The notes: generated by a model from the sequence alone, not told the origin. A stretch of 32,000 bases of DNA from Candidatus Methylomirabilis oxygeniifera (GCA_000091165.1 FP565575.1:1680001-1712000), one strand, 5' to 3'; shown: positions 2-28,754, counted from the first letter of the stretch. Translations and numbers: made by a program.

Positions 2-877
2 ACTGACGACACTATTGATGCCGAAGACCAGGAGTCTCTCGAATTTGACGCCTCATCCGTCGAGCCGCTCTATCAACTCGATCTGACGGCGTTGATACCG
101 GGCACCATCATCATCGGACAAGGAATTGCACGCATTCGACATGCAAGCGTCGGCGATTCCCTCTTCTTTCTCGCGTTCGACGGCACCGTGTTGGATTTAC
201 GGATCGGCGGTTTTTTGTCCTCCAGATCGGAACTGGTGTCGTCCGATCTCATCTTGACGACCGAGGCGGACTTTCGACGGCTGTTTGGAATCCCTCACGA
301 CGCCGTAACGGACGTTACCGTATCGGTTCGAAACCCGAGAGAGATTCCAACTATTGCCGGGAAGATCGCGCGACTTCTGCCCGATGCCCGGCCCATTACT
401 CGGGACGAAATCCTGAGAACCTACGATTCAATCTTTAATTGGCGCGGGGGAATGATGCTCGTCATCCTGGCCTCCGCCGTACTCGCGTTTGTCATCTTTG
501 CATGGGACAAGGCCTCCGGCTTGAGCGCCGGGGAGAAACAGGAAATCGGCATTCTCAAGGCCATCGGCTGGGAAACCTCGGACATTATCGAGATGAAGTT
601 CTGGGAAGGAGCGGTGGTGTCGCTGACCGCCTTCTTCACCGGGGTCATCCTGGCCTATCTCCACGTCTTCTTTTTCTCGTCGGTGGTGTTTGAGCCGGCC
701 CTCAAAGGATGGTCGACCCTCTACCCGCAATTTCATCTGACTCCATTTATCGACGTCGGACAACTGACCACGCTCTTCTTCCTGACGGTAGTCCCCTATA
801 CCGCCGCCACCATCGTGCCGGTCTGGCGCGCCGCAACAATCGATCCCGATACGGCGATGCGCCGCACAGGGGAGTAA
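2..877 (+). CDS. ABC transporter permease, FtsX/MacB-type (5' end lies outside the window)
   Basis: The frame is open from nt 2 with no stop (TDDTIDAEDQ...), so the listed start at 92 is internal. A soluble (periplasmic-type) domain is followed by the FtsX signature GILKAIGW, hydrophobic helices and an RAATIDPDTAMR tail. Its ATPase gene starts 3 nt downstream. Confidence 0.85.
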   Translation, partial: TDDTIDAEDQESLEFDASSVEPLYQLDLTALIPGTIIIGQGIARIRHASVGDSLFFLAFDGTVLDLRIGGFLSSRSELVSSDLILTTEADFRRLFGIPHDAVTDVTVSVRNPREIPTIAGKIARLLPDARPITRDEILRTYDSIFNWRGGMMLVILASAVLAFVIFAWDKASGLSAGEKQEIGILKAIGWETSDIIEMKFWEGAVVSLTAFFTGVILAYLHVFFFSSVVFEPALKGWSTLYPQFHLTPFIDVGQLTTLFFLTVVPYTAATIVPVWRAATIDPDTAMRRTGE

Positions 878-880
878 CCG

Positions 881-1561
881 GTGATCGAACTGATCAACGT
901 CACAAAAACCTTTAATGCCGGAACGCCGAGCGAATGTTCCGCTTTGAACGGGATTACCTTGACGATCAGCGACAAGATGGCGACGGTACTGGTCGGTCCA
1001 AGCGGGTCCGGCAAAACGACGCTGCTCACCATCATCGGCTGTATGGCAAGACCATCGGCCGGCCGCGTCACGCTCAACGGACGGGAAATTACCTCGCTCC
1101 CGGAACGGTTTCTGACCGAGATTCGACGCAAGACCTTCGGGTTCATTTTTCAGCAGCCGAACCTGATCAAAGGCATCACCGCGCTGGAGAATGTCATGTT
1201 GCCGGCGTACCCGGCCGGAACGGAACACGCGGCGCTCCGGGAACAGGCAATACGACTGCTCCAAGGGCTTCAGCTTTCCGAGAAGGCGGCATCGAAGGTC
1301 GAGTGGCTCTCCGGTGGGGAGGCGCAACGGGTCTCCATCGCCAGGGCGTTGATCAACAATCCGTCCGCCATTATTGCCGACGAGCCGACCGCGCACCTTG
1401 ACACAAGCTTGTCCCGCCGGTTTTTAGAGATTGTGGAGCGGTTCAAGGCGGAGGGGAAAACGATCTTGATGACCAGCCATGATCCGCTGATCTATCAGTC
1501 TCGCGTCGTCGATCGCGTGGTGCGGCTTCGAGATGGAAAGGTCGAAGAGGCAGGAGGATGA
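881..1561 (+). CDS. ABC transporter ATP-binding protein (MacB/LolD-like)
   Basis: Walker A GPSGSGKTT, ABC signature LSGGEAQRVSIARAL, Walker B IIADEPT and H-loop TSHD. The GTG start lies 3 nt after the permease stop. Confidence 0.95.
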   Translation: MIELINVTKTFNAGTPSECSALNGITLTISDKMATVLVGPSGSGKTTLLTIIGCMARPSAGRVTLNGREITSLPERFLTEIRRKTFGFIFQQPNLIKGITALENVMLPAYPAGTEHAALREQAIRLLQGLQLSEKAASKVEWLSGGEAQRVSIARALINNPSAIIADEPTAHLDTSLSRRFLEIVERFKAEGKTILMTSHDPLIYQSRVVDRVVRLRDGKVEEAGG

Positions 1562-2553
1562 TTCTCCACCCGGCAGTCATCGCCAATGTCGTGTCCTCTT
1601 TGATTATCAGCGTCACGATCGTGTATGCGGCGGTGTACGGCGTACAGATTCTGTTGAAGTGGGATCTTCAAAGCGGCGATGAACTTCAGTTGCGTCTCGA
1701 ACGACGGACGTATCTGATTTCAACCCTGCTGAGCTTTATTTTAGTCCTGGAGCTGACGTCGCTGTTTCTCTTCGTCTTTACCGCGGATACCCTCTGCCCG
1801 CTCTTCGTCGGCGCCATGTGCGCGGCTGGAACGCTGAACGTGAATGCGTTCGGCTACCCCACCCTGTTGATGAAAATGGTCAATTTTCTTCTCGCCGGGC
1901 TCTGGCTTGTCCTCAATTATGCCGACAACCAGGCGTACGATTATCCGCTGATCAAAAAAAAATATCTGCTGCTGGCCGTCATCGCGCCGCTGAGCGTCCT
2001 AGAAACCTTCCTGGAAGGAACCTACTTTCTGAACCTGCGCGCCGATGTGATCACCTCGTGCTGCGGCAGCCTCTTCAGCAGCGAGCAGGTCAGTGGGATC
2101 GGCTCAGAACTCGCGGCGTTGCCGAGCCGGCCGATGATGTGGACGTTTTTCCTGGGGATGGGAGGCATGCTGCTGCTCGGGCTCTATTTCTACACTAAAG
2201 GCAAGGGGGGGTATCTGTACGCGCTTGCCACATGGGTCATGTTCGGCGTCTCGCTCGTCTCCATCATTTCATTTATCTCCCTCTATATCTATGAGCTGCC
2301 GACCCATCATTGTCCCTTCTGTATCGTCATGAAGGAGTACGGGTATATCGGCTATGCCCTGTATCTCCCGCTCTTCCTGGGGGCGGTCACCGGTGGCGGC
2401 ATCGGGACATTGATCCCGTTTCGACGCATAGAGAGTCTTCGCGCGGTTCTTCCGGCGCTGATTCGCAAATTGACCATCATCTCGCTGGCCGCCTACGCGA
2501 CCTTTACGGCAATTGTGATCTATGAAATCGTGGCATCGAATTTGATTCTTTAG
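1558..2553 (+). CDS. Cys-rich polytopic (about 8 TM) integral membrane protein, family not recognised
   Basis: The ATG overlaps the upstream stop (ATGA). Long hydrophobic helices alternate regularly. There are three Cys clusters: CPLFVGAMC, CCGS and HHCPFC. Confidence 0.8.
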   Translation: MILHPAVIANVVSSLIISVTIVYAAVYGVQILLKWDLQSGDELQLRLERRTYLISTLLSFILVLELTSLFLFVFTADTLCPLFVGAMCAAGTLNVNAFGYPTLLMKMVNFLLAGLWLVLNYADNQAYDYPLIKKKYLLLAVIAPLSVLETFLEGTYFLNLRADVITSCCGSLFSSEQVSGIGSELAALPSRPMMWTFFLGMGGMLLLGLYFYTKGKGGYLYALATWVMFGVSLVSIISFISLYIYELPTHHCPFCIVMKEYGYIGYALYLPLFLGAVTGGGIGTLIPFRRIESLRAVLPALIRKLTIISLAAYATFTAIVIYEIVASNLIL

Positions 2554-2572
2554 GGGAGGGATTTTGAGGGTC

Positions 2573-3106
2573 ATGAGAAAAAGACCGTTCATCGCCTATA
2601 CGGCGCTCGTCCTGATGGCGATCGCGCTGATGACGCTGGCGGCCGTCGACAACGCCGCATCGGCAGACCGTCGACAACGAGGTCTGACCAGGAGAGACAA
2701 GTGCCCGGTGTGCGGCATGTTCGTCTATAAGTACCCGAAATGGGTCGCCAAGATCGAGTTCCAGGACGGCCACGCTCATTTTTACGACGGCGCCAAGGAT
2801 ATGTTTAAACATTATATGAATCTGTCGAAATATACGCCCGGGAGATCGGACCACGAGATCGCGGCCGTCTTTGTCACCGACTATTATGCGGTCGAACTGA
2901 TCGAGGCCAAAACCGCCTTTTACGTCATCGGCAGCGATATCCTGGGCCCGATGGGACACGAACTGATCCCGTTCAAGGATGAAGCCTCGGCGAAGGAGTT
3001 CCTGGAGGACCACAAGGGAACGCGCATTCTGCGATTTGAAGAGGTGACAAAAGAGGTCATCGACGCACTGGACGCGGCCCAACAAGAGAGAGGGGGAAAG
3101 CGATGA
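2573..3106 (+). CDS. nosL: NosL-family protein (putative periplasmic Cu(I) chaperone)
   Basis: N-terminal signal/anchor helix (no lipobox Cys), then CPVCGM (nt 2702-2719), which is the CxxCGM hallmark of NosL. The C-terminal pattern ...IPFKDEASAKEF...HKG is typical of the family. GGGAGGG lies upstream of ATG 2573; the tracked ORF starts at an alternative TTG at 2564. Confidence 0.85.
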   Translation: MRKRPFIAYTALVLMAIALMTLAAVDNAASADRRQRGLTRRDKCPVCGMFVYKYPKWVAKIEFQDGHAHFYDGAKDMFKHYMNLSKYTPGRSDHEIAAVFVTDYYAVELIEAKTAFYVIGSDILGPMGHELIPFKDEASAKEFLEDHKGTRILRFEEVTKEVIDALDAAQQERGGKR

Positions 3107-4479
3107 AGCAGATCTGGGTGTGTATCTTAGTCTGGGCGTGTCTCGGGTCGACTGTCGCGTTTGCGGACGACGCGGGTACAACGACTGCCGGCGAAAGGGA
3201 AGAGTGTCGGATCTGCGGCATGTGGATCGATCAATACCAACGGACCGCAGCGGAGCTGATCTACAAAGACGGTAGAAAAGAACATACCTGCGGAGTCGCC
3301 TGCATGTTCCGCATTCTGGACGAAGAAGGGGTAGACGCCTTTACCTCCATCACCGTTCGCGATTGGAAGACGGGCAATCGGGTGGATGCGCAGGATGCGA
3401 CGTATGTAATCGGAAGCCGCGTCATCCCGGAGATGATTCCGAACATTATTGCGTTCGAAAGCAAGGCCGCCGCTGAGACATTTCAAGCCCAGGAAGGCGG
3501 CGCATTGATCGACCTTGGGAGGGGTCTGCAAATCATCACACCACGCGGTCAGACGGTCCCGTTCCGGCTTCAGACCGCCGTCACAACGGGACGAGGATCG
3601 TTCGGGCTGGGAGCCGGGTTCGGGTACTTGCGAAGGGATGATATCAAGCTCGGATCGGACAGCCGCGATCCGCGCAAGTTTATCAGCAGCCGCGCTCAAC
3701 AACCACGCGCCCCCAGAAGGGTCGAATCGTACGGTCAATCGCTCTTCATTAATTATGGTATCACCGATCGCCTGGCAGTACTGGCGAATCTGCCGTACTT
3801 CGAAAGGGAAACCAGCCGGTTCGAAAAAAATCTGAAGACGGCTGAGATTACGACCATAGACGCCGATGCCGCCGGATTGGGCGATCTCGATCTTCGTTTT
3901 CGCTATAACCTGTGGCGGAATACCATTCAGGATACGTGGGTCACGGCAACATTGACGACAACCATCCCTACCGGGAGATTTAATAAGGCATTTATCGATA
4001 GCCCTGCTTTGCAGTCCGGGGCCGGCGCCCCATCGGTTGGTGGAGGGCTGCTCTTTTCTTACAGTTGGCGAGACCTGTGGTTTCACTCCTCTGCAACATA
4101 TACCGGCAGGCTACGAAACGGTGACGAATACAGGTTCGGCAACGAAGCGGCGGCCGGGGTGGCGGTCCATTATACGCCACGGTATGATGTCATGCTCGGG
4201 ATCGAGGCGGACGCGGTCCATGCTGAAAAAAATGAGTTTAAAGGGGTAACCGTCGGCAACACCGGGGGGACCAGAGTCAATCTTACGTTCGTTGCCGACT
4301 GGAGATTTCTCCTCGCGCTGGGCGGCAATTTTACGTTGCGGGCCGCCATGGGGTTGCCGATCCATGAAGATTTGAACCATCGCACGATCGGACCGAGAGA
4401 GCAGGTCCAGCTCGGTGGCGGCTATTTCGGCAACGTGGCCCTGACCTACGCCACTCGCTTTCCGTTTATTGAGGAGTGA
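3103..4479 (+). CDS. Fusion protein: N-terminal NosL-like domain plus C-terminal outer-membrane beta-barrel (Phenol_MetA_deg/transporter-like)
   Basis: The ATG overlaps the nosL stop (ATGA). Sec signal peptide ...TVAFA|DD. CRICGM lies at nt 3205-3222, followed by ...IAFESKAAAETF..., which is NosL-like. From about residue 150 there is an alternating beta-strand pattern with GLGDLDLRFRY and IPTGRF...LQSGAGAPSVGGGL motifs, typical of small OM barrels of the MetA-pathway family. Confidence 0.8.
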   Translation: MKQIWVCILVWACLGSTVAFADDAGTTTAGEREECRICGMWIDQYQRTAAELIYKDGRKEHTCGVACMFRILDEEGVDAFTSITVRDWKTGNRVDAQDATYVIGSRVIPEMIPNIIAFESKAAAETFQAQEGGALIDLGRGLQIITPRGQTVPFRLQTAVTTGRGSFGLGAGFGYLRRDDIKLGSDSRDPRKFISSRAQQPRAPRRVESYGQSLFINYGITDRLAVLANLPYFERETSRFEKNLKTAEITTIDADAAGLGDLDLRFRYNLWRNTIQDTWVTATLTTTIPTGRFNKAFIDSPALQSGAGAPSVGGGLLFSYSWRDLWFHSSATYTGRLRNGDEYRFGNEAAAGVAVHYTPRYDVMLGIEADAVHAEKNEFKGVTVGNTGGTRVNLTFVADWRFLLALGGNFTLRAAMGLPIHEDLNHRTIGPREQVQLGGGYFGNVALTYATRFPFIEE

Positions 4480-4607
4480 GGCTTATGTCGGCTCCTCCAT
4501 GTGTGTTTCCTACCTCGGACACATATTCAGTTTTTGTAGCATCCGTGAGCACGCATTAGTAGACACCTCTGCCGGAAAGGAGTAGAAAGTGACAGGTCGT
4601 TTCACCT

Positions 4608-4976
4608 GTGTTTCGTAATATCAAAGTGAACGGAGTCTTATCCGTGTCGCTCTCGAATAGGCTAATTCACAAATCTCGGTCGCTCACGCCCATTGCCGTA
4701 TCAGCACTTGGTCTCTATCTGCTGGTCAACGCGTTCCTCATTCTGTGTCTGGTTCATCCTCACAATACTCACCTCCAAGCTCAGGCCGATAGTCATCCCG
4801 TCTCAGTCTGTGCCTGGGTCCACAAAACAGTCGCCTCCCATGTCCCATCATCAGGAATTATCCTGCCCTTGGTGGCGGCCGGGCTACTCGCCTTCCTGCC
4901 ATTGCCGCAACGCAGTCCTGAGATCTTCCCGATCAAGCAGACCGGCCGCTCTCCACCCCTGCTCGCCTTCGTATAA
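4608..4976 (+). CDS. Small His-rich two-helix membrane protein (hypothetical; paralogue of 25559..25945)
   Basis: Architecture is TM helix, His-rich linker (HPHNTH...ADSHP), CAWVH, second hydrophobic helix, then a C-terminal GRSPP motif. The ORF at 25559 has the same architecture. The GTG start is uncertain and I saw no clear RBS. Confidence 0.45.
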   Translation: MFRNIKVNGVLSVSLSNRLIHKSRSLTPIAVSALGLYLLVNAFLILCLVHPHNTHLQAQADSHPVSVCAWVHKTVASHVPSSGIILPLVAAGLLAFLPLPQRSPEIFPIKQTGRSPPLLAFV

Positions 4977-5765
4977 GTCTGTTCACTCAAGCCTCTACCG
5001 GTACGCACCGCAATTCTCTTATTTGAACCACAGCGCCTCGGCCTTTTCGAAGGCGTAGGCAGGTTTTAAGAACGAAGAATGTTGTCGTGGGCGCCTCGGG
5101 CTTAAGCCCAGGCCCGCCTCAGCCCCATTATATGTTTGCCCGCTATCCTCCTGCATAGAGAGGTCGACTACGCGGGAAGGACGAGGGAACTTGAGGTGTC
5201 ATCGTGAACAATACGCACGGCGGAAGATCGCATCGAACCACGAGCCGACGCATTTCCCACGAAAAGAAGGTCCACCCGTCGCCTGACTACTTTGGTGACG
5301 CCCTCCGCATCCTTGACAATGACCTCACGCTCCAGCCACAGCGCGAGCACCTGGTAGCGTTGTGGGGATTGGTGGTTGGCCTGTCGCGCAGGCTTACGCA
5401 GGCCTATGTTGAATGCCAGGATCATCGGGATTCGACTGCAAGCACACATCATTCGAGCACAGTCGATCAAGACATCCACTCCTCCGGACAAAGAGCGATA
5501 AGAACGGGCATGGGAACGATCTGACAGCGCTGCTTCCGCGCTCGCCCGCCTCTTCCTGCCGGGGTCGGGCCGATTCTCAACGGCAGGAATTCCTCCCTCG
5601 AATGCGATGAGCCTCACCGGGACCGCCGTTCCTCTTCCGGCGGTCCCGAGGCTCACCGCAGCAAGCGGAGGATAGCGTGCGGCATCAAGCACTCTGCATG
5701 GTGAAACGCAATACATACGACACACGTAACTACGCAATCGACCTTTTCGAGGGAAGGAGACACGC

Positions 5766-8084
5766 ATGAAACAACGCGAACGTCAACGCACGCGCAGACG
5801 TACAGCGGCCCTTGTGGGGGTGGCCACACTACTCACATGGGGTGCCGTGGCACACGCAGAGGAAGAAAAGAAAACAGATGAGGTGACAACACTCAAGGAG
5901 GTAGTTGTCAGATCTACTGCTCTCAATGACGTCTTTGTGCCGTTGAATGCATCCGTCATCGATCAGACAACACTGCAGTCCATACCGCCGGCCACCAACG
6001 ACACGGCAACCCTTCTGAGAGATGTCCCCGGTGTCAGTCTGTACGGCGCCGGCGGCATTTCCAGCCTGCCGGTGATTCACGGCTTGGCCGACGACCGTCT
6101 GCGCATCAAGGTCGACGGCATGGATCTGATCTCCGCCTGCCCCAATCATATGACCCCGCCGCTTTCCTATATCGATCCGGCCGGCGTGGGGACCCTGAGG
6201 GTGTTCGCCGGTATTGCGCCGGTCAGCGTCGGCGGCGACAGCATCGGCGGCACGATTCTGCTGGAGTCCCCGGCGCCGGTATTCGCCGCACCCGGACAGA
6301 CCCCTCTGCTCACGGGCCATCTCAGCTCGTTTTATCGCAGCAATAACAAGGCGCGCGGCGGCGACTATTCGGCCACGTTCGCGACTGATAACTTCAGCGC
6401 CACTTATAACGGCTCGGTCATTCATGCCGACAACTACACGGCAGGCGGGAACTTCAAACCCGCCGGGCCGGCCGCTGTCGATAAGCCGGGGAACATTCTC
6501 GACGGCGATGAGGTTGGCGCCAGCGCCTTTAAGGCCGAAAACCACAACCTGGCCTTTGCGCTGAAACAAGGCAACCACCTATTCGAAGCGAAGTTTGGTT
6601 ACCAATATATCCCTGAACAGGGCTTTCCCAACCAACGCATGGATATGACCACCAATTCCGAGTGGCGTCAGAACCTGCACTACCTCGGCCAGTTCGGATG
6701 GGGCTCGCTGGATATCCGCGGCTATCATGAAATTGTCAACCACAAAATGGATTTCAGTGACGACAAACAATTTCTCTACGGAGCACCGCCGTTCGTCGCA
6801 CCGGGAATGCCGATGAAGACCGACAGCAGGAACATCGGCGGCTCGGTCAAGACCAACATCGACCTGACCAAGGAGCACACCCTCCGCGTCGGGGGTGAAT
6901 ATCAATATTACCGGCTGCACGACTGGTGGCCGCCGTCCCCCAAAGTCCTGCCGCCCGGCTACACATACGGCGGAATGGCGCCGGACACCTTCCTGAACAT
7001 CAATGACGGCACGCGTACGCGAGGGGCGGTATTTGCCGAATGGGAGGCGCGCCTGCATCCGCAGTGGCTGACGCTGTTGGGCGCACGATATGAACACGTC
7101 AAGATGACTGCCGACGACGTGCACGGCTACAACAGCGTCATGCCAAGTTACCAGTTTGCGGCAGAGGTCTTCAATGCCCGCGATCACGATCGCACCGACC
7201 ACAACTGGGACCTCACTGCGCTGACCCGCTATACGCCGACACCGATGCTGAGCCTCGAATTTGGCTACGCGCATAAGACCCGATCGCCGAACCTGTATGA
7301 ACGCTACCCCTGGTCCACGAACTCCATGGCGATGATCATGAATAACTTCGTTGGCGACGGCAACGGCTATGTCGGTAATCTGGATCTGGACCCGGAAAAG
7401 GCTCACACTATCAGCGGCACTGTCGACTGGCATGCCACGAATCGTACCTGGGAGTTTAAGGTCACGCCATACTACACCCACGTCACCGACTACATCGATG
7501 CGAAGCGTTGCCTGGGAAGCGGGAGCGGCATGAATTCGATGTGTGGCGGCCCGGCGAATAATACCGCAGTCAACAAGTTCGTCCTGCTTCAGTACGTCAA
7601 CCAGACGGCCCGGCTCTGGGGTGTCGACGTCTCCACCCATATGCCGTTGGCAAAGATCAACGGCATCGGCGAATTCAACCTTGCGGGACTGTTCAACTAC
7701 ACGAACGGCAAGAACCGCACGACCGGCGACGATCTCTACAACATCATGCCGCTCAACGGGAAGTTGTCGCTACGACATCAACTCGGCGGCTTCGACAGCG
7801 GTCTTGAGGTGGTCATGGCGAAGGGCAAGAACAACGTCTCTGATGTACGGAACGAAATCAAGACATCGGGTTATGTCCTCGCCAATCTGCGCGCTGGCTA
7901 TAGCTGGAAGATGATGCGACTCGATTTCGGGATCGATAATGTGTTCGACAAATACTACTCTTTACCGCTCGGCGGCGCCTATACCGGTCAAGGCGCAACC
8001 ATGGGCCTCAACTCAATCCCGTGGGGGACGGCCGTCCCCGGTATGGGACGTTCGTACAACACCAGACTGACCTATAGGTTCTGA
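5766..8084 (+). CDS. TonB-dependent outer-membrane receptor, OprC/NosA-like (copper)
   Basis: AGGAGA RBS, signal peptide, a plug domain with TonB-box-like EVVVRS, and a terminal beta-barrel ending ...TRLTYRF. CPNHM (CxxxM, nt 6138-6152) and HKM (HxM, nt 6741-6749) match the copper-site signature described for OprC. Confidence 0.93.
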   Translation: MKQRERQRTRRRTAALVGVATLLTWGAVAHAEEEKKTDEVTTLKEVVVRSTALNDVFVPLNASVIDQTTLQSIPPATNDTATLLRDVPGVSLYGAGGISSLPVIHGLADDRLRIKVDGMDLISACPNHMTPPLSYIDPAGVGTLRVFAGIAPVSVGGDSIGGTILLESPAPVFAAPGQTPLLTGHLSSFYRSNNKARGGDYSATFATDNFSATYNGSVIHADNYTAGGNFKPAGPAAVDKPGNILDGDEVGASAFKAENHNLAFALKQGNHLFEAKFGYQYIPEQGFPNQRMDMTTNSEWRQNLHYLGQFGWGSLDIRGYHEIVNHKMDFSDDKQFLYGAPPFVAPGMPMKTDSRNIGGSVKTNIDLTKEHTLRVGGEYQYYRLHDWWPPSPKVLPPGYTYGGMAPDTFLNINDGTRTRGAVFAEWEARLHPQWLTLLGARYEHVKMTADDVHGYNSVMPSYQFAAEVFNARDHDRTDHNWDLTALTRYTPTPMLSLEFGYAHKTRSPNLYERYPWSTNSMAMIMNNFVGDGNGYVGNLDLDPEKAHTISGTVDWHATNRTWEFKVTPYYTHVTDYIDAKRCLGSGSGMNSMCGGPANNTAVNKFVLLQYVNQTARLWGVDVSTHMPLAKINGIGEFNLAGLFNYTNGKNRTTGDDLYNIMPLNGKLSLRHQLGGFDSGLEVVMAKGKNNVSDVRNEIKTSGYVLANLRAGYSWKMMRLDFGIDNVFDKYYSLPLGGAYTGQGATMGLNSIPWGTAVPGMGRSYNTRLTYRF

Positions 8085-8141
8085 TTGGGCGCATCCGCCA
8101 AAACAGAGGTTCGGACACCTACACCACACAAGGAGAGAAAC

Positions 8142-9008
8142 ATGCGACGAGTACGAACCATCGCCTTTGCGGCCCTTCTGGCCGGGGCTTTCATCTCTGC
8201 CGATGCCTGGGCTTTTCCACACGCCAATATCCGATCGAAGGACACCCTTGATGCGTACACCGGCAGGAATTATCAGGAGGGGACCAGCGCGGTCCTGAGT
8301 ATTAACATAGGCCACGGTTGCACCCATTCAGGGGAGTCATATACGACCCGGCTGGTCACGGCGCTCTTCCCCAACAGTTCCAACCCGAATTTGAGCGGCA
8401 TCGCCTATACCACAGACGGCACAACGAACTATGAGGGCAACGCATTGTACGGAATCAAGCCCGTGGTCGATCAGAACTGGAAACAGATCCAGCCGATTAC
8501 AGGCACTGTCCCGACCTACTACAATCACGGCGCGAAAAGCACGGACGTTCGCGCCGTTCACTGGGAGTGGGGATACATCCCGGATAATTTCGCGGGGTAT
8601 GCGAATGTCAGCGTCAGTTTCCCGAAGTTTCAACCGAATACGTGCTACAACAAGATTCAAGTCGATATACCCGTGATACAGTACTGCCAGGCGGATTCGA
8701 AACACGCAGAGGATCATATGTGGAAACGGGACAGGATGAAGGCAAAAGGCGACTTTCATAGGGTCTATGCGTGGATGAAGGAGGCTACATCCGTGTTCCC
8801 GACCGAGACGATTGTCGCCCCCGGCTATGTCGCGTCTTTGACCATTGTCAGGAACCTCACCACCAACCCCTTGCCGGCATCCTGTGGAGGAACAGGACAG
8901 ACGATCGAGCTGTATCCGACAGCAGCCGAAATCGACATGTATTTGCCGCCCCTTGATGGCGACATCTCTGCCGGCAGCGGAAGCGGTGGCGGCGATCATA
9001 TGCATTAG
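8142..9008 (+). CDS. Secreted protein, tentatively YcnI/DUF1775-like (copper-binding fold), with a Gly/Ser linker and DHMH tail
   Basis: AGGAGA lies 6 nt before ATG 8142; the tracked TTG at 8085 is unlikely. Signal peptide ...SADAWA. The stretch HANI...(30 aa)...INIGHGCTHSGESYTTRLVTALFP resembles the DUF1775 H...RVxHGCxGSxTT block. The C-terminus is GSGSGGGDHMH. Confidence 0.75.
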   Translation: MRRVRTIAFAALLAGAFISADAWAFPHANIRSKDTLDAYTGRNYQEGTSAVLSINIGHGCTHSGESYTTRLVTALFPNSSNPNLSGIAYTTDGTTNYEGNALYGIKPVVDQNWKQIQPITGTVPTYYNHGAKSTDVRAVHWEWGYIPDNFAGYANVSVSFPKFQPNTCYNKIQVDIPVIQYCQADSKHAEDHMWKRDRMKAKGDFHRVYAWMKEATSVFPTETIVAPGYVASLTIVRNLTTNPLPASCGGTGQTIELYPTAAEIDMYLPPLDGDISAGSGSGGGDHMH

Positions 9009-9095
9009 GATCTGTTACCCCACCTCTACAGCTGTAACCCTGCCGTTGGCAAGAGCTGGAGGAGTGGGAATCCGCTTGCACCATTTGATCACCTA

Positions 9096-9135
9096 TTGAC
9101 AGATATTGACACTTGAAAAATCCTCGTGGTAGAGT
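9096..9135 (+). promoter_or_regulatory. Candidate sigma70-type promoter upstream of the SmbP-like gene, with a duplicated TTGACA
   Basis: TTGACA at 9096-9101 and again at 9106-9111. TAGAGT at 9130-9135 lies 18 nt after the second hexamer. The gene starts at 9212. Confidence 0.3.
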
Positions 9136-9211
9136 TGTCGTGCTCCTCCACCATTACGGTGTCGGCAGCATCGAGGGAAGACGAACAACTTGTCATGAGG
9201 AGGAAGTCAGG

Positions 9212-9550
9212 ATGAGGCGAAGGATTGCAGCAGCAGCGTTATTCCTGGGGGTGGTGACTTTCGTAGGAACTGGTATCTCCTGGGCAGCAAAGTCGCATAT
9301 GGTTGAGGCGACCGAGCACACCCAGGCAGCCGCCGAGCACGGCAAAGCGGGGCATGCCGATGTAGCAGCGACACACGCGACGGCGGCCCTGCAACATGCC
9401 GAGGCCGCTCAGAAGGAGAAGGCCGACCCCCATAAGGAAGCGGCCATCAAGGGATTGAAGGAGGCCGTTGAGCACGGCAAGGCTGGACACGCCGATGTCG
9501 CCGGCAAGGCCGCTGCAGGGGCACTCGAACACCTCAAAGCGGTAAAGTAA
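9212..9550 (+). CDS. Small periplasmic His-rich metal-binding protein, SmbP-like
   Basis: GAGGAGGA RBS before ATG 9212; the tracked start at 9113 gives a non-signal N-terminus. Signal peptide MRRRIAAAALFLGVVTFVGTGISWA. The mature ~87 aa is all-helical Ala/His/Lys/Glu with 10 His and a duplicated block EHGKAGHADVA. It resembles Nitrosomonas SmbP (as I recall it, ...HGKEGH...EHL...). Confidence 0.8.
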   Translation: MRRRIAAAALFLGVVTFVGTGISWAAKSHMVEATEHTQAAAEHGKAGHADVAATHATAALQHAEAAQKEKADPHKEAAIKGLKEAVEHGKAGHADVAGKAAAGALEHLKAVK

Positions 9551-18356: not shown

Positions 18357-18522
18357 CGACCAGCCTATCGGGCTGCTCTTCTGGCTCGGTCCGGGCGTGA
18401 GTGTGCCTCGCTTGTGCGGTATAAACTTGAGTGGACGGACCGATAAAAACGCTACAAGAAATTGAAAAGGCGGCAGATTTCGTATGTGGACTACGATCTG
18501 CTAGTCGGGAAACCACTACTTG

Positions 18523-20892
18523 ATGCTAACCGAAGCCGATACCTGCCGAAAGTACGTCCTGCCGAAGCTTTACGCCGCTGGCTGGAGTGACGATCAAATC
18601 AGCGAGCAGAAGTATTTCACCGACGGACGCATTGTCGTGACCGGTCGGAGACACTTCAGGAAACCGGGGAAGAAGGCGGATTACCTGCTCAATTATCGGC
18701 CTGACTACCGGCTTGCTGTGGTTGAGGCCAAGGTCTCCTATAAGAACCCCGCCGACGGCCTTCAGCAGGCAATGGAGTATGCGGAAATCCTCGGGCTCAG
18801 ATTTGCCTATTCGACGAACGGCCATGGAATCGTAGAGCACGACTACACCACAGGTGGGCAGCAGGTCCTGGACATCTTTCCCTCTCCTGATGAACTGTGG
18901 CGTCGGGTTCGTGCGGCCGAAGGCCTGGCCGACGACAAGGCAGCCGAAGACCTGCTGTTTCCGTTTAACCGCGAACTTCGCAATCCAGACGGTTCCATCA
19001 AGACTCCCCGGTATTTCCAGGAGATCGCGATCCATCGAGCCGTGCAGGCCGTCCTGCAGGGCAAACCTCGCATCCTGATCACCATGGCCACGGGGACCGG
19101 CAAGACCTTTGTGGCCGTCCAGATCGTTTGGAAACTCTGGAAGACGGGACATAAAGGGCGGATCCTGTATCTGGTTGATCGGAACATCCTCGTAGATCAG
19201 CCTCTTGTCCGTGAGTTCAACATCTTTGGCGGTGCCGTCTGGAAGATCCAAGGAGAGGCGAAGAAGGGGCGAGAGATCTACTTCGCGCTCTACCAGGCTC
19301 TGGCAGAGGACGAGTCGCGGCTGGGTCTCTATAAGGAATACCCGCCGGATTACTTCGACCTGATCATCGTGGACGAGTGTCACCGTGGGAGCGCGACGGA
19401 TCAGTCCCGCTGGCGCCGAATCCTGGAGTACTTTGATGCGGCCACTCAGATCGGGATGACAGCTACACCCCGGCGCGAGGAGACCCGGGACACCTACGGG
19501 TACTTCGGCAATCCCATCTATACCTATCCATTGAGTCAGGGCATCGAGGATGGGTTCCTGGCACCCTATCGCGTGCATCGCATCGTTCCCAGCGTGGACG
19601 CCACCGGGTGGCGGCCGGAGCGGGACCAACTTGACCGCTTTGGACGCGAGATCCCGAACGGCGTGTACGAGACCAAAGATTTCGAGCGTGTAGTCTCCCT
19701 GCTCAGCCGGACCGAGGTCGTGGCCCAGCATCTGACCGCCTATCTGAAAAGAACAGACCGATTCGCTAAGACCATGGTGTTTTGCGTGGACCAGGAGCAC
19801 GCTGAAGACATGCGTGCCGCGCTGCACAAGGCCAATGAAGACCTTACGCAGCAATACCCACACTACGTGGCGCGCGTAACGGTCGATGAAGGGAAGGTGG
19901 GTCGGGGCCATCTGGATGACTTCGTGGATCCCGAGCGAGACATGCCGGTGATCCTGACGACGTCTAAGCTCCTCAATACCGGAGTGGACGCCCCCACGTG
20001 CCGAAACATTGTCCTGTTCAAGCCTATCGGCTCCATCGTGGAGTTCAAGCAGATCATCGGGCGAGGCACCCGCCTCTATCCGGACAAGGATAAGCTGTGG
20101 TTCACGATCCTGGACTACGCCGGGGCTACCCGCCTCTTCGCCGATCCCAACTTTGATGGGGAGCCTGAACGGATTACTGAGGAAAGGATTTACCCGTCTG
20201 GCGAAGAGCAAGGGTCACCCGTGATAGTCGGAGAAGGCCCTTCGTATGGAGGAGAAGAAGACGAAGACGTGCCCGTGAGCGACTGGCAGGAGCAGCCGCA
20301 CAGGAAGTACTATGTAGACGGGGTCGAGGTGCGGATCACCGCAGAGATAGTGTATGAGCTGGACAGTTCAGGGAAGCAGCAACGAGTCGTCAAGTACACG
20401 GACTATACAGCCGAACAAGTGCGCCGGCTGTACCCCACCCCCGCTGAACTTCGGACAGAGTGGATGGATGCAGAACACCGGGGGGCCATTCAGCAGGCCC
20501 TCGCTGAACGCGGCATTGACTTCTCCGCCCTGGTCGAAGCCACAAACCAGCCAGATGCGGATCCGTTCGATCTTCTCATCCACGTTGCGTGGAACGCTCC
20601 CCTCCGAACCAGGCGGGAGCGCGCCGAGAGTGTGTCCGGAGGGAAAGGAAAGACTTTTGGGACCTGTACACGCCTCAGGCTCGCGGCATTCTCAATGATC
20701 TGCTGGATAAATACACAGACTATGGTGTCACGCAGCTCGATGATCTCCAGATTCTTGAAGTTCCACCTCTCTCCAAGCGCGGAACCCCTATGGAAATCGC
20801 CGGTTTCTTTGGAGGAGTCGATCACCTGCGATCTGCAGTTGCTGAGCTTCAGTCTCTCTTGTACAGATAGGCATAGTAATACAAATAGGTAA
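18523..20892 (+). CDS. hsdR: Type I restriction enzyme R subunit (EcoEI/EcoAI-like), with its C-terminal domain frameshifted near nt 20635
   Basis: HSDR_N nuclease N-terminus (LTEADTCRKYVLPKL), helicase motifs MATGTGKT, DECHRGS and TATPRR. After ...PLRTRRERAESV the frame yields low-complexity nonsense until 20892, while the homologous sequence continues in another frame (see 20589..20870). Confidence 0.9.
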   Translation: MLTEADTCRKYVLPKLYAAGWSDDQISEQKYFTDGRIVVTGRRHFRKPGKKADYLLNYRPDYRLAVVEAKVSYKNPADGLQQAMEYAEILGLRFAYSTNGHGIVEHDYTTGGQQVLDIFPSPDELWRRVRAAEGLADDKAAEDLLFPFNRELRNPDGSIKTPRYFQEIAIHRAVQAVLQGKPRILITMATGTGKTFVAVQIVWKLWKTGHKGRILYLVDRNILVDQPLVREFNIFGGAVWKIQGEAKKGREIYFALYQALAEDESRLGLYKEYPPDYFDLIIVDECHRGSATDQSRWRRILEYFDAATQIGMTATPRREETRDTYGYFGNPIYTYPLSQGIEDGFLAPYRVHRIVPSVDATGWRPERDQLDRFGREIPNGVYETKDFERVVSLLSRTEVVAQHLTAYLKRTDRFAKTMVFCVDQEHAEDMRAALHKANEDLTQQYPHYVARVTVDEGKVGRGHLDDFVDPERDMPVILTTSKLLNTGVDAPTCRNIVLFKPIGSIVEFKQIIGRGTRLYPDKDKLWFTILDYAGATRLFADPNFDGEPERITEERIYPSGEEQGSPVIVGEGPSYGGEEDEDVPVSDWQEQPHRKYYVDGVEVRITAEIVYELDSSGKQQRVVKYTDYTAEQVRRLYPTPAELRTEWMDAEHRGAIQQALAERGIDFSALVEATNQPDADPFDLLIHVAWNAPLRTRRERAESVSGGKGKTFGTCTRLRLAAFSMICWINTQTMVSRSSMISRFLKFHLSPSAEPLWKSPVSLEESITCDLQLLSFSLSCTDRHSNTNR
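20589..20870 (+). pseudogene. hsdR: Displaced C-terminal segment of hsdR (second half of the EcoEI_R_C-type domain) in the -1 frame
   Basis: From nt 20637 this frame reads RRERKDFWDLYTPQARGILNDLLDKYTDYGVTQLDDLQILEVPPLSKRGTPMEIAGFFGG...LQSLLYR*. That is the expected continuation of type IB HsdR C-termini. Confidence 0.75.
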
Positions 20893-20962: not shown

Positions 20963-20965
20963 TTG

Positions 20966-21574
20966 ATGATGGGAAGACGGGATCCACAAGAGGCCAGGCG
21001 TCGTCTTTACGAATATGCAGTTGCCCAAGGCGGCTATTTTACGGCTGCCCAAGCTAGGATAGCCGGCTACCCCAAGCAGCTCCAGTACTACCATGTCAGG
21101 CGTGGCAACTGGGTTCGGGAAGATCGTGGTATCTTTCGCCTCTGGGAATGGCCGAGGAGCTCGCACGAAGACCTCATTCGCTGGACGTTGTGGAGTCGGG
21201 GTGCGGCGGTGGTTTCCCACCAGAGCGCGATGGCGGTGCATGAGATCAGCGATCTAATGCCGGCCAAGATACACCTGACTGTCCCGCCGGAGTTTCGCAA
21301 AACTCCATCCCCAGCCATGGTCCTTCACCGGGACCGTCTTGCTCCCCACGAAATTGAACAGCGTGATGGGTTTCGTGTTACAACACCCCTGAGAACCCTT
21401 ATTGATGCCGCCCGCGTCGATGTGGATCCTGAGCGTCTATCCGCTGCAGTCCGGGATGCCGTTTTGAAAGGCCTCGTTGCAGACCGCCACATCGAGGCTG
21501 CCATAGACACACTCCAAGGAGCGGCGGCAGAACGCCTGTATCAGGCGCTCACTCTGGCCCGGAAGGCTGCTTGA
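20966..21574 (+). CDS. abiEi: AbiEi-family antitoxin / transcriptional regulator (type IV TA, abortive infection)
   Basis: The N-terminal wHTH pattern ...LYEYAVAQGGYFTAAQARIAGYPKQLQYYHVRRGNWVREDRGIFRL is typical of AbiEi_4. The stop overlaps the next gene's start (TGATG). Confidence 0.85.
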   Translation: MMGRRDPQEARRRLYEYAVAQGGYFTAAQARIAGYPKQLQYYHVRRGNWVREDRGIFRLWEWPRSSHEDLIRWTLWSRGAAVVSHQSAMAVHEISDLMPAKIHLTVPPEFRKTPSPAMVLHRDRLAPHEIEQRDGFRVTTPLRTLIDAARVDVDPERLSAAVRDAVLKGLVADRHIEAAIDTLQGAAAERLYQALTLARKAA

Positions 21575-22440
21575 TGAGATACGCCAATGCGGCAAGCTTC
21601 CGGATGGCCCTGGAGGAACGCATCAGGCAGCGCAGTGCCACCGATGGAGTGGCGATACAACGACTCAGAAAGCGCGTCACATTCGAGCGGTTTCTGGCTC
21701 GTCTTCAAGCGCCACCGGACAGCCCCTGGTTCTTGAAAGGGGCATTCGCCCTGGATCTTCGATTTGGGGATCGATCCCGCACCACGAAAGACCTCGACCT
21801 CGCAGTTGATCTTGCCATCGCGTCCAATGTTGTTCCCGCGACTCCAGCGGGGATCGCAGCACGTCTGCAGGCGGCCGCAGCTTACGAGCTGGACGACTTC
21901 ATCGTCTTTAGTGTCCCGGCGGAAGGAGAACGGATCCAGCAAGAACCAAGCGCTCAGACCTATCGGTTCCACGTTCGGGCACTCCTGGATAAACGTCCCT
22001 TCGAAGACTTCAAGGTCGATGTCGGTACCGTAACGCCACTGGTTGCACCAACGGAAGAGATTGCTGAGAGCGACACGTTGCGCTTTGCAGGGATTGTTCC
22101 CCGACGGTTCCGAGCGATCTCGCTCGCCCAGCACTTTGCCGAAAAGATTCACGCGCTCACCTTTCCGTGGGAAGATCGGGAACAAACCAGGGTGAAGGAT
22201 CTCGTGGACATTGTGCTGATCCTCGAGGTGAACGCACCCGATCCCCACACAGCCCGGAATGCCCTCCAAGCGGTGTTCGATGGAAGAGGCACGCATTCTC
22301 TTCCCTCCCAGATTTCCGATCCGCCACCCTCATGGACTGGGTCATATACCGCCACTGCAAGAGAGCTCACACTCACTCACATGACTATAGAAGACGGCAC
22401 CAGGCTTCTTCATCAATTTTGGGCCAAAGTTTTTCCATGA
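21574..22440 (+). CDS. abiEii: AbiEii/AbiGii-family nucleotidyltransferase toxin
   Basis: FLKGAFALDLRFGDRSRTTKDLDL is the NTase motif of the family. Length is ~290 aa and the gene is coupled to abiEi. Confidence 0.9.
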   Translation: MRYANAASFRMALEERIRQRSATDGVAIQRLRKRVTFERFLARLQAPPDSPWFLKGAFALDLRFGDRSRTTKDLDLAVDLAIASNVVPATPAGIAARLQAAAAYELDDFIVFSVPAEGERIQQEPSAQTYRFHVRALLDKRPFEDFKVDVGTVTPLVAPTEEIAESDTLRFAGIVPRRFRAISLAQHFAEKIHALTFPWEDREQTRVKDLVDIVLILEVNAPDPHTARNALQAVFDGRGTHSLPSQISDPPPSWTGSYTATARELTLTHMTIEDGTRLLHQFWAKVFP

Positions 22441-22449
22441 GGTAAGAGT

Positions 22450-23961
22450 ATGGCGAGACGCAGAAGAGAAGAGACCTCAGTGCCGCTGACAGCAAAGGCA
22501 CAACTGTCAGCGGCTACCAAGAGAGCACGGGATATCATGCGCAAGGACGCCGGACTGAACGGCGACCTGGATCGCATTCCCCAGCTCTCCTGGATCATGT
22601 TCTTGAAATGCTTCGACGACCTTGAGCAACGTCGCGAGGTGACGGAGAAGAAGTATCGGCTCGCAATCGAGCCACCCTACCGGTGGCGTGACTGGGCAGG
22701 CAACCCGGACAAGGGACTGACAGGAGAGTCGCTTCTCAAGTTCATCAACGACGAGCTGTTCCCATATCTGCGGAGCCTCACGGGAACGGTGGCAGGGGAT
22801 GCAAGAGACGTTCTGGCGGCTGTCTTCAAGGAAACCTATAACCGAATGCTTTCCGGATACCTCCTGCGGGATGTCGTGAATCTGGTCAACCGGCTCAATT
22901 TTAATTCTTCTGACGACATCCACACACTGGCCCACCTGTACGAGTCGATGCTCCGCGAGATGCGAGACGCGGCGGGGGACTCCGGCGAATTCTACACGCC
23001 CAGGCCAGTCATTCGGCTTATTGTGCAGCAGGTAAACCCTCGCCTGGGAGAGAGGGTGCTGGACCCGGCGGCGGGGACCGGCGGCTTTCTTGTGGAGTCC
23101 TACGAACACCTGAAGGCCCAGGTGAAAAGCGTGGAGGATCGACGGCGCCTTCAGGAGGATACGCTTTTCGGAATCGAAAAGAAGCCGATGCCATACCTGC
23201 TTGGGATGATGAACCTCCTGCTTCACGGCCTGGACCGCCCGAATCTGCTCCGCGACAACGCCTTGAGGAACCCGCTCGTCCAGATCACCGACAGCGGCGC
23301 ACGCTATCACGTGATCATGACAAACCCACCCTTTGGTGGTGAGGAGGAGAAGGGTGTCCAGGACAACTTTCCGGATGCCACTCGCACCTCGGAAACCGCC
23401 CTCCTCTTCCTGCAATTCATCATGCGTAGTCTCAAGCGCGGGGGTCGCTGCGGTATGGTCGTCCCCAACGGCACGCTCTTCGGTGATGGCGTCTGCGCCC
23501 GCGTCAAAAAGGAGCTTCTCGAACACTTCAACCTGCACACGATCGTCCGCCTCCCCAACGGGGTCTTCGCGCCCTATACCTCTATCCCCACCAACCTGCT
23601 CTTTTTCGACCGCTCCGGTCCCACGAAGGAGATCTGGTATTACGAGCAACCGCTGCCCGAGGGCCGGAAAAACTACACGAAAACCCAGCCTCTTCAGTTT
23701 GAGGAGTTCGCTCCTTGCGTGGCCTGGTGGAAGAACCGTGAGGAGAATGACCGTGCCTGGAAGGTTTCGATCAACAATGTGCTGAAGTATGACAAGAATA
23801 GTAATCTTATCTCCGCCAACCTCGACATCAAGAACCCGAATGGCAAGCGGGACTTCGAGCATTTGCCACCGGAGCAACTGGCCGATGACATTTTGAAGAA
23901 AGAGCAGCAGATTCTAGAGATCATGGCGGAGATTAAGCAGACGCTGGCGAGGGCAGGGTGA
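22450..23961 (+). CDS. hsdM: Type I R-M N6-adenine DNA methyltransferase subunit
   Basis: HsdM N-terminal domain, GEFYTPRPV, AdoMet motif VLDPAAGTGGFL and catalytic NPPFGG. Confidence 0.97.
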   Translation: MARRRREETSVPLTAKAQLSAATKRARDIMRKDAGLNGDLDRIPQLSWIMFLKCFDDLEQRREVTEKKYRLAIEPPYRWRDWAGNPDKGLTGESLLKFINDELFPYLRSLTGTVAGDARDVLAAVFKETYNRMLSGYLLRDVVNLVNRLNFNSSDDIHTLAHLYESMLREMRDAAGDSGEFYTPRPVIRLIVQQVNPRLGERVLDPAAGTGGFLVESYEHLKAQVKSVEDRRRLQEDTLFGIEKKPMPYLLGMMNLLLHGLDRPNLLRDNALRNPLVQITDSGARYHVIMTNPPFGGEEEKGVQDNFPDATRTSETALLFLQFIMRSLKRGGRCGMVVPNGTLFGDGVCARVKKELLEHFNLHTIVRLPNGVFAPYTSIPTNLLFFDRSGPTKEIWYYEQPLPEGRKNYTKTQPLQFEEFAPCVAWWKNREENDRAWKVSINNVLKYDKNSNLISANLDIKNPNGKRDFEHLPPEQLADDILKKEQQILEIMAEIKQTLARAG

Positions 23962-25945: not shown

Positions 25946-26068
25946 TACCCGATTCGTTCTAACCTGTAGACGGTAAGCCCGGGATATCCTTATCTCTACG
26001 GCTACCTTTCCGTGCGGGGTGGTCCAGCCCCCGTCAAATGCCGTCGTCTTTCTGAGGAGGAACAATCG

Positions 26069-27601: not shown

Positions 27602-27622
27602 CAAAGCCAAGGAGGATCAGCA

Positions 27623-28684: not shown

Positions 28685-28689
28685 GATAC

Positions 28690-28736
28690 TTCAGCCTTTA
28701 GCCTTCAGCCTAAATCCCTAATTGCTGACGGCTGAA
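28690..28736. repeat. Intercistronic heptamer repeats / stem-loop
   Basis: TTCAGCC TTTAGCC TTCAGCC (28690-28710) is followed 19 nt later by the inverted GGCTGAA (28730-28736). Confidence 0.4.
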
Positions 28737-28754
28737 CGCTATTTTCGGAGGACC

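Follow-up and report, generated by a model that had tools for sequence, protein, structure and literature searches.

A NosL-encoding operon in Candidatus Methylomirabilis that joins an FtsX-type ABC pair to an undescribed cysteine-rich membrane protein family: a candidate periplasmic copper hand-over system

The stretch of DNA analyzed here, referred to as the window, comprises 32,000 nucleotides from Candidatus Methylomirabilis oxygeniifera (GCA_000091165.1, FP565575.1:1680001-1712000), and its sequence has an exact match in the European Nucleotide Archive, namely contig Methylomirabilis_oxyfera_contig_238 of GCA_009026205.1 (Ca. Methylomirabilis oxyfera/oxygeniifera, phylum NC10). At its 5′ end lies an operon in which an FtsX-type permease and an ATPase of the ATP-binding cassette (ABC) class are followed by a cysteine-rich protein with eight transmembrane (TM) helices, here called Mem331, and by two proteins of the NosL family, NosL1 and NosL2. 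The features of the operon are as follows, with positions 5′ of the window given in the coordinates of the longer locus L001.

2..877, + strand: FtsX-type (type VII ABC) permease, C-terminal 291 codons (Pfam FtsX)
881..1561, + strand: ABC ATPase of the FtsE/LolD/MacB subfamily, 226 residues (Pfam ABC_tran)
1558..2553, + strand: Mem331, 331 residues, eight TM helices, unnamed family (no Pfam or NCBIfam match)
1819..1821, + strand: Mem331 Cys88 in a GAMCAAG motif, loop TM2-TM3 (alignments)
2059..2064, + strand: Mem331 vicinal pair Cys168-Cys169 in a TSCCG motif, loop TM4-TM5 (alignments)
2305..2322, + strand: Mem331 motif H250-H251-C252-P-F-C255, loop TM6-TM7 (alignments)
2573..3106, + strand: NosL1, soluble periplasmic NosL-family protein with a signal peptide (Pfam NosL)
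3103..4479, + strand: NosL2, signal peptide, NosL domain and outer-membrane barrel (Pfam NosL and Phenol_MetA_deg)
L001 7784-8092, just 5′ of the window: small single-TM protein, 102 residues (no Pfam or NCBIfam match)

An initial annotation of this DNA had described five same-strand open reading frames as one operon on the strength of their gaps and overlaps, and the junctions, re-read from the sequence, agree with it. The stop codon of FtsX (TAA, 875-877) is followed by a 3-nt gap (CCG) and the GTG start of the ATPase at 881, and the ATPase and Mem331 genes overlap in an ATGA at 1558-1561. The Mem331 stop (TAG, 2551-2553) is separated by 19 nt from the NosL1 ATG at 2573, with an in-frame TTG at 2564 as a possible alternative start, and a further ATGA overlap (3103-3106) links NosL1 to NosL2, which ends at 4477-4479. 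Each start in the window operon is preceded by a GGAG/GGAGG-like (Shine-Dalgarno-like) sequence. While the five reading frames are in place, the gene set was nevertheless incomplete in two respects: the first gene is truncated at its 5′ end by the window edge, its full length being 414 residues (L001 8076-9320), and a gene for the small TM protein, which runs 17 nt into the FtsX start, lies outside the window and so could not be read from it. The operon therefore comprises six genes rather than five.

Both NosL assignments were confirmed by Pfam (PF05573, cut-off 24), with 122.3 bits (E 2e-35) for NosL1 and 70.2 bits (E 3e-19) for the N-terminal domain of NosL2. NosL1 can also be aligned with NosL as solved in the P. 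stutzeri NosDFYL complex (7OSF; E 1.4e-9), and the NosL2 N-terminal domain superposes on S. denitrificans NosL (7OG7; Foldseek template-modelling score, TM-score, 0.65). The residues C47-x-x-C50-G-M52, M130 and H150 of NosL1 are conserved in 62/62 module homologues, and C35, C38, G39, M40, C63 and M111 of NosL2 are invariant in 32 sequences. In S. denitrificans NosL, the strictly conserved Cu(I) ligands are Cys62, Met64 and Met145 (PMC8457098); by our reading of the alignments, their equivalents are C50, M52 and M130 in NosL1 and C38, M40 and M111 in NosL2. Judged by these residues, both NosL domains retain the full Cu(I) ligand set and are predicted to bind Cu(I).

Neither protein appears to be anchored as a NosL lipoprotein. 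NosL1 has no cysteine ahead of the metal motif and no lipobox, and the N-termini, inspected by eye, resemble those of signal peptidase I substrates; a lipobox-like motif was seen in 2 of 62 NosL1 homologues and in 2 of 30 second NosLs. NosL2 is anchored instead through its fused barrel, the NosL domain spanning residues ~30-137 and a 12-stranded barrel residues ~160-455 of the AlphaFold2 model (mean predicted local distance difference test, pLDDT, 88.3). The barrel matches Phenol_MetA_deg (PF13557; 24.5 bits, E 3e-5, cut-off 22) and resembles FapF (5O65/5O67) and the COG4313 channel 4RL8 in a Foldseek search (E ~1e-13, TM-scores 0.65-0.73). The proposal of an outer-membrane barrel is thus borne out by model, fold search and Pfam alike, and the family hidden Markov model together with the 12-stranded model places NosL2 among the COG4313/FapF channels. 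The small protein has a single TM helix and a conserved region, LTDLCLFTEARYTR...FQDxPxxxEHFPxG.

Mem331 had been described as an eight-TM, cysteine-rich protein, and its AlphaFold2 model (pLDDT 94.1, predicted TM-score 0.91) indeed contains eight TM helices, in agreement with hydropathy. It has no match in Pfam or NCBIfam, and no credible Pfam match was obtained for any of 38 family members. A Foldseek search of the PDB with the model gave nothing at E<0.1 (best hit E 0.18, TM-score 0.3), and the family profile did not match any PDB sequence. The family itself is large, with more than 6000 homologues in a 90%-clustered database and 965 clusters at 50% identity. We conclude that Mem331 belongs to no described family.

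Over 38 sequences, down to 29% identity, the residues W35, Q44, G85, C88, G91, W116, C168, C169, Y245, H250, C252 and G265 are invariant. At least 90% of 11 closer sequences also share H251 and C255; C255 is not invariant, several members having CPFD at this position. The loops that bear the cysteines are poor in lysine and arginine (means of 0.7, 1.4 and 0.8 for TM2-3, TM4-5 and TM6-7, against 3.7, 2.7, 2.3 and 2.4 for the other loops), and the Cys4-His cluster is therefore predicted by the positive-inside rule to be periplasmic, on the same predicted side as NosL and the periplasmic domain of FtsX. On a cytoplasmic loop, the invariant W35...Q44...E48 stretch could contact the ATPase.

Several alternative identities for Mem331 were considered and not supported. 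Against a DsbD/CcdA-like reductant conduit stand the absence of a Pfam match in the 38 members and an hhalign probability of 0.2% against the DsbD_2 proteins of neighbouring loci. An internal 4+4 TM duplication was not detected, and no domain fusions that might hint at function were found. For a NosB-like role, of the kind found next to clade II nosZ, the genomic context gives no sign, as no nosZ occurs at the loci examined, those of distant members included. Methylococcus sp. Mc7, a cultured organism with a complete genome (CP079095.1), carries two distinct Mem331 gene copies (P0095 and P0099).

The permease matches Pfam FtsX at E 3.9e-8, above the gathering score, and weakly resembles lolCE and LolF. 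By hydropathy it comprises TM1 (27-45), a periplasmic domain of ~225 residues, TM2 (272-290) and then TM3-4, the fourth helix lying under the hydropathy threshold and having been assigned by eye. An FtsX domain and four TM helices, the first two of them separated by a large periplasmic domain, are the hallmarks of type VII ABC systems, and the ATPase (Pfam ABC_tran, E 4e-31) is of the cognate FtsE/LolD/MacB subfamily. Its top NCBIfam matches are FtsE (180 bits), LolD (179) and MacB (175); because all of these scores are far under the equivalog cut-offs, it is not an orthologue of any of the three. By eye from the translation, its Walker A (GPSGSGKT), signature (LSGGEAQR) and Walker B (IIADEPT) motifs appear intact. 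Of the MacB/FtsX-type machine in the initial annotation, Pfam confirms the FtsX and ABC_tran parts, and MacB_PCD was not detected; the conserved unit includes no membrane-fusion protein or TolC of the MacAB-TolC type. In the methanotroph, nitrifier and NC10 clade, the periplasmic domain of FtsX bears an acidic, poorly conserved insertion of 35-40 residues (residues ~120-155, window 2-100), which is not present in anaerobe-type homologues.

A scan of species-representative genomes with an 11-sequence Mem331 alignment yielded at least 593 confirmed relatives, of which the best 80, together with the exact-match loci, gave 82 non-redundant loci for analysis. Complete loci, with at least 3.5 kb of sequence upstream and 4 kb downstream, numbered 47. 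In these, the ATPase is present in all 47 and stands directly ahead of Mem331 in every case, FtsX and the small TM protein are each present in 46, and at least one NosL gene is present in 45, with two or more NosL-domain genes in 29. A thioredoxin-like Redoxin gene is found in 17 of the 47 and the NosL::barrel fusion in 10, the fusion being absent from all 31 loci of the other arrangement described below. Mem331 relatives at ~30% identity keep the order NosL, small protein, FtsX, ATPase, Mem331, without nosZ, and on one 6.6-Mb genome contig the five-gene module stands alone, without add-ons. No plasmid-borne copies in resistance islands were found. The genes are thus co-conserved elsewhere, as the initial annotation had led one to expect, and NosL, the small protein, FtsX, the ATPase and Mem331 form a core that is one conserved unit across phyla. 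The barrel fusion and the TlpA-like thioredoxin are clade add-ons and not part of the core; the Redoxin is regarded as accessory because neither the M. oxyfera operon nor the majority of anaerobe loci contain it. Therefore, while the barrel fusion behind the suggested "trans-envelope" device is real, it is confined to 10 of the 47 complete loci, and the core is an inner-membrane and periplasmic module.

Two arrangements of the module can be distinguished. The first, in the order small protein, FtsX, ATPase, Mem331, NosL, (Redoxin), NosL::barrel, occurs in Methylomirabilis, Nitrospira, Nitrosomonas and Methylococcales, across whose phyla Mem331 is 63-77% identical; of the 19 genome loci in which Mem331 is at least 63% identical, 17 have informative names, and all of these belong to methanotrophs or nitrifiers. 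In the second, the NosL genes come first and Mem331 last, and the hosts are Desulfobacterota, Geobacteraceae (including the isolate Pelotalea chapellei DSM 13688), Syntrophales and Thermodesulfovibrionales. A ResA/TlpA-like Redoxin gene lies between the two NosL genes in 9 of the 10 complete barrel-type loci (L007, L010-L024). Loci of the first arrangement often carry an additional gene, directly 5′ of the module in Methylococcales (L011 6093-7391, L090 6146-7453, and other methanotroph loci), whose product combines a DsbD_2 membrane domain (motifs FHCVGMCGP and IICGP) with a cupredoxin-like domain in which Cys and Met residues are conserved. This fusion protein could be a permease for copper or else a conduit for reductant; the M. 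oxyfera locus does not encode it. M. oxyfera lacks both the Redoxin gene and the conserved cysteine of the small protein. Encoded next to some modules are further NosL fusions, longer NosL-domain proteins of 375-491 residues with extra regions (L044 13321-14787, L049 11096-12571, L093 6665-7897).

The wider context of the module is consistently that of heavy-metal, and mostly copper, homeostasis. Around anaerobe-type loci, a CusA/CzcA-family pump of the resistance-nodulation-division (RND) class recurs in 17 cases and scores above the TIGR00914 cut-off. A CusB-like adaptor with a C-terminal YHS domain is seen at 11 loci, YtkA at 8, a sigma-54 response regulator likewise at 8, and at 7 a copper-type P1B ATPase that exceeds the cut-off of TIGR01511; the families matched by the pump and the adaptor do not distinguish Cu/Ag from Zn/Co/Cd. 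Methanotroph loci additionally have a P1B ATPase and a full DsbD, and in the window a homologue of SMBP, the small metal-binding protein, follows the operon. Upstream of the M. oxyfera operon (L001 116-7529) are genes for a ZIP transporter, a fusion of a cation diffusion facilitator (CDF) with a metallo-beta-lactamase, two weakly matching Metal_resist (CpxP/ZraP-like) proteins and a cytochrome c′-like protein.

Despite the two NosL proteins, the cluster is not part of a canonical nos locus, and the initial annotation was accurate in finding no nosZ or nosDFY in the window. No nosZ, nosD, nosF or nosY was found within 10 kb upstream on the longer contig or in the remaining 27 kb of the window downstream. 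A recurrent neighbour of NosZ size was likewise found neither among the 82 loci nor at those of distant members. The M. oxyfera genome has been reported to lack nosDFYZ (PMC3198195), and NosL homologues are known to occur outside nos clusters (PMC8457098).

Comparison with characterized systems shows which parts of the operon have precedent. NosDFYL (P. stutzeri cryo-electron microscopy structures, PDB 7OSF-7OSJ and 7ZNQ) is nearest in logic, as NosL is encoded there too with an ABC ATPase and permease that presumably serve as a periplasmic motor. However, the operon described here has neither NosD nor NosZ, its permease is of the FtsX type, with four TM helices and a large periplasmic domain, rather than the ABC-2-type NosY, its NosL is not a lipoprotein, and Mem331, the small TM protein and NosL::barrel are additional partners. 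The nearest systems in hardware are the type VII ABC transporters MacAB-TolC, LolCDE/LolDF, FtsEX and HrtBA, which share the layout of the FtsX permease and include the nearest families of the ATPase. Unlike these, the operon offers no membrane-fusion protein, TolC, LolA/B or EnvC-type partner, but metallochaperones and a Cys-rich membrane protein instead; no type VII ABC system linked to a metallochaperone was found in the open-access papers searched. A precedent for NosL/NosDFY serving a client other than NosZ is provided by the clusters of the octahaem haem-copper sulfite reductase MccA/SirA in Shewanella and Wolinella (sir/nosL in S. oneidensis), although these keep NosD, NosF and NosY beside the client enzyme, whereas no client is encoded near the present operon.

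More distant likenesses are found for individual components. The pairs MerP-MerT, CopC-CopD and YcnI-YcnJ also combine a periplasmic metal-binding protein with a polytopic membrane protein, and in MerT a vicinal cysteine pair receives the metal through ligand exchange; yet no sequence or fold relation to these was detected, they need no ABC motor, and the conserved cysteines of Mem331 are, in distinction, all predicted on one membrane face. FapF and COG4313 (Pput2725) have the same 12-stranded barrel as the C-terminal 300 residues of NosL2, and in FapF a periplasmic domain likewise precedes the barrel. Here, however, the periplasmic domain is NosL, and its barrel relatives are known to handle amyloid subunits or hydrophobic molecules rather than metals. 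Finally, the Redoxin in 9 of 10 barrel-type loci and the DsbD-type proteins nearby recall TlpA/ResA working with ScoI/CoxB or in cytochrome c maturation, and they fit a need to keep metal-ligand thiols reduced. In a search of full texts, which covered open-access papers, no description of a NosL/FtsX-type system was found, in keeping with the initial annotation, which did not recognize it as a described one. The scheme itself, chaperone plus ABC-driven periplasmic metal delivery, is of a known kind; the new part is the Mem331 family, and the function is predicted.

NosL binds Cu(I) and docks on NosDFY, an ABC complex whose conformational changes provide a motor in the periplasm, and type VII ABC transporters such as MacB, LolCDE and FtsEX use ATP for periplasmic work rather than for pumping across the inner membrane. 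Our leading, though tentative, reading of the operon is that it encodes an ATP-powered periplasmic Cu(I) hand-over machine. In such a machine, soluble NosL1 would carry Cu(I) through the periplasm. The FtsX-ATPase pair would not pump across the inner membrane, but would convert cytoplasmic ATP hydrolysis into movement of the periplasmic domain, as in other type VII ABC systems, and this movement would drive the transfer of firmly held Cu(I) between NosL and a Cys/His site of Mem331 that faces the periplasm, Mem331 serving as a membrane-resident Cu(I) acceptor or donor. In the clade of Methylomirabilis, nitrifiers and methanotrophs, a second NosL domain would be tethered at the periplasmic mouth of a 12-stranded channel, where it could capture copper as it crosses the outer membrane and so extend the relay across the envelope, and in aerobes a TlpA/ResA-like thioredoxin would keep the thiols reduced. 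For this clade we favour supply, that is, acquisition of copper when it is scarce and metallation of periplasmic or membrane cuproenzymes, for example particulate methane monooxygenase (pMMO) and ammonia monooxygenase (AMO), over detoxification, both because the copper demand of methanotrophs, nitrifiers and NC10 bacteria is high and because a passive pore with a tethered chaperone is better fitted to capturing copper than to expelling it. The copper-trafficking role suggested by the initial annotation thus gains from the NosL family, its ligands and the copper-themed neighbours, but it stays a predicted function, which we infer from family membership and genomic context.

A number of observations weigh against this reading. 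We infer the metal, the direction of transfer and the client, and the predicted orientation of the Mem331 cysteines is drawn from the positive-inside rule. No Cys, His or Met is conserved in the periplasmic domain of FtsX, so that this domain is unlikely to bind metal itself. In M. oxyfera, the small protein has an alanine in place of a cysteine that is conserved in 92% of homologues, and this is the sole one of the ten complete barrel-type loci without a Redoxin gene. Furthermore, the module is often found in strict anaerobes (Desulfobacterota, Syntrophales, Thermodesulfovibrionales), whose copper demand is presumably small, and the efflux-gene neighbours in anaerobes fit detoxification as well as supply.

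The last point leads to a serious rival, a possible, if on balance unlikely, role in copper or silver detoxification, in which the NosLs would scavenge periplasmic Cu(I), and FtsX-ATPase and Mem331 would remove Cu(I) from the periplasm or outer leaflet and pass it outward, in this clade to the barrel and in anaerobes to neighbouring CusCBA-type pumps. MacB-type transporters do expel periplasmic substrates, the anaerobe-type neighbours include the RND pumps (17), CusB-like/YHS adaptors (11), P1B ATPases (7) and YtkA (8) listed above, and the M. oxyfera locus adjoins CDF and Metal_resist genes. Yet the conserved unit lacks a membrane-fusion protein or TolC-like duct, a passive 12-stranded barrel is unable to drive export, and the organisms in which the barrel fusion occurs are those of very high copper demand; the efflux neighbours, moreover, occur in a minority of loci, at most 17 of 82.

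It is doubtful that the cargo is something other than copper, such as Zn, Cd, Hg, Ni or persulfide, or that the operon serves thiol-disulfide maturation, with Mem331 as a membrane thiol oxidoreductase and a thioredoxin-like partner. The solved NosL binds Zn(II) besides Cu(I) (PMC8457098). NosL and MerB have a common fold, and in aerobes Redoxin and DsbD-type genes lie beside the module. A vicinal CC pair together with a periplasmic CxxC chaperone recalls MerT/MerP, and the C...CCG...CxxC order in Mem331 recalls the CCG motif known from HdrB-type disulfide reductases. However, the Cu(I)-specific Cys/Met/Met ligands are all retained, the copper-type P1B ATPase neighbours score above the curated cut-off, C255 of the CxxC is replaced in several members (CPFD), and Redoxin is present in only 17 of the 47 complete loci. 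Mem331 also has no profile similarity to DsbD_2, Pfam CCG was not found in the 38 members, and the location of the motif is predicted to be periplasmic.

We consider it improbable that Mem331 is itself the client, that is, a novel cuproprotein or enzyme of the membrane, with a Cys/His centre of copper or copper-sulfur type that NosL and the ABC pair would build, much as NosL and NosDFY do for NosZ. Such a role would suit the sole component without a known role, one which follows the ATPase in 47/47 loci, possesses an invariant five-residue Cys/His cluster and belongs to a module that often makes up the entire operon, other candidate clients being absent from the vicinity. Neither a redox partner nor a cofactor-binding domain is conserved along with it, though, the sequence suggests no activity, and the stoichiometric coupling of its translation to that of the transporter points to a subunit, not a substrate.

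That the operon is a functionless, decaying remnant of a nos cluster after loss of nosZ can be set aside as highly improbable: M. oxyfera does lack nosZDFY, and its nosL was reported as apparently not expressed (PMC3198195), but this reading is contradicted by the conservation data (a unit kept at 50-77% identity across phyla, with at least 593 relatives in other genomes), all reading frames are intact and translationally coupled, and the ABC part is FtsX-type, not NosFY-type.

If the hand-over reading is correct, metal trafficking would join the known jobs of type VII ABC transporters, a widespread nameless family, that of Mem331, would acquire a function, and the annotation "nitrous oxide reductase accessory protein" would be corrected in genomes without such a reductase. 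To our knowledge, copper delivery to periplasmic and membrane cuproenzymes is understood mechanistically for few cases, Sco/PCuAC for CuA and NosDFYL for NosZ, and the copper route to pMMO and AMO, enzymes that matter for the global methane and nitrogen cycles, is an open question in organisms without methanobactin. The operon is a concrete, testable candidate in this respect, a copper chaperone coupled to a mechanotransducing ABC pair and a new Cys/His membrane protein, with a lineage-specific outer-membrane extension that is shared horizontally among exactly the methanotrophs, nitrifiers and Methylomirabilis. One may speculate further that Mem331 with FtsX-ATPase is a general inner-membrane Cu(I) "insertase" which, extended by NosL::barrel in methanotrophs, ammonia oxidizers and Methylomirabilis, is the missing methanobactin-independent copper route to pMMO/AMO, but this we regard as distinctly unlikely. 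These functional statements, all of them predictions, are of relevance to the copper-trafficking, methanotroph and nitrifier fields.

Downstream of the operon, the 1.3 kb up to the next assigned gene (window 4480-5765) carry short reading frames that are called inconsistently between near-identical contigs; one such frame (4608-4976) has no Pfam match. Window 5766-9550 encodes a TonB-dependent receptor, then, with its start codon adjoining the receptor stop, a protein of 288-307 residues that belongs to no family, and then the SMBP homologue. The best NCBIfam matches of the receptor are of haem/haemoglobin type, with a weaker match to a copper receptor. These three genes were considered as parts of the system and rejected, as they accompany the module only in Methylomirabilis loci.

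Inverted repeats built from GCAGGAAT and ATTCCTGC occur 5′ of the operon (L001 7626-7677), where they take the form ATTCCTGC-AAAA-GCAGGAAT plus a 13-nt pair, and 5′ of the receptor gene (window 5553-5597). The GCAGGAAT motif is found 4 times in L001 against 0.66 expected and is not significantly enriched in the window; the repeats could represent either a common operator or a repetitive element, and the evidence for a shared operator was too weak for the motif to be used. The leader of the receptor gene (window 5603-5660) contains nested GC-rich inverted repeats with 13-nt and 11-nt arms, and the leaders gave no Rfam match to a riboswitch or other known RNA.

Further downstream, the window encodes MetH, a porin, a protease, a type I restriction-modification system, ZnuABC and a peroxiredoxin. 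The zinc importer of the ZnuA/ZnuC/ZnuB type (27623-30388) is preceded, within window 26012-30388, by a 529-residue protein without a Pfam match. The restriction-modification genes are R (18520-20892), M (22450-23961) and S (23958-25151), and an AbiEi/AbiEii toxin-antitoxin pair (20963-22440) is inserted between R and M.

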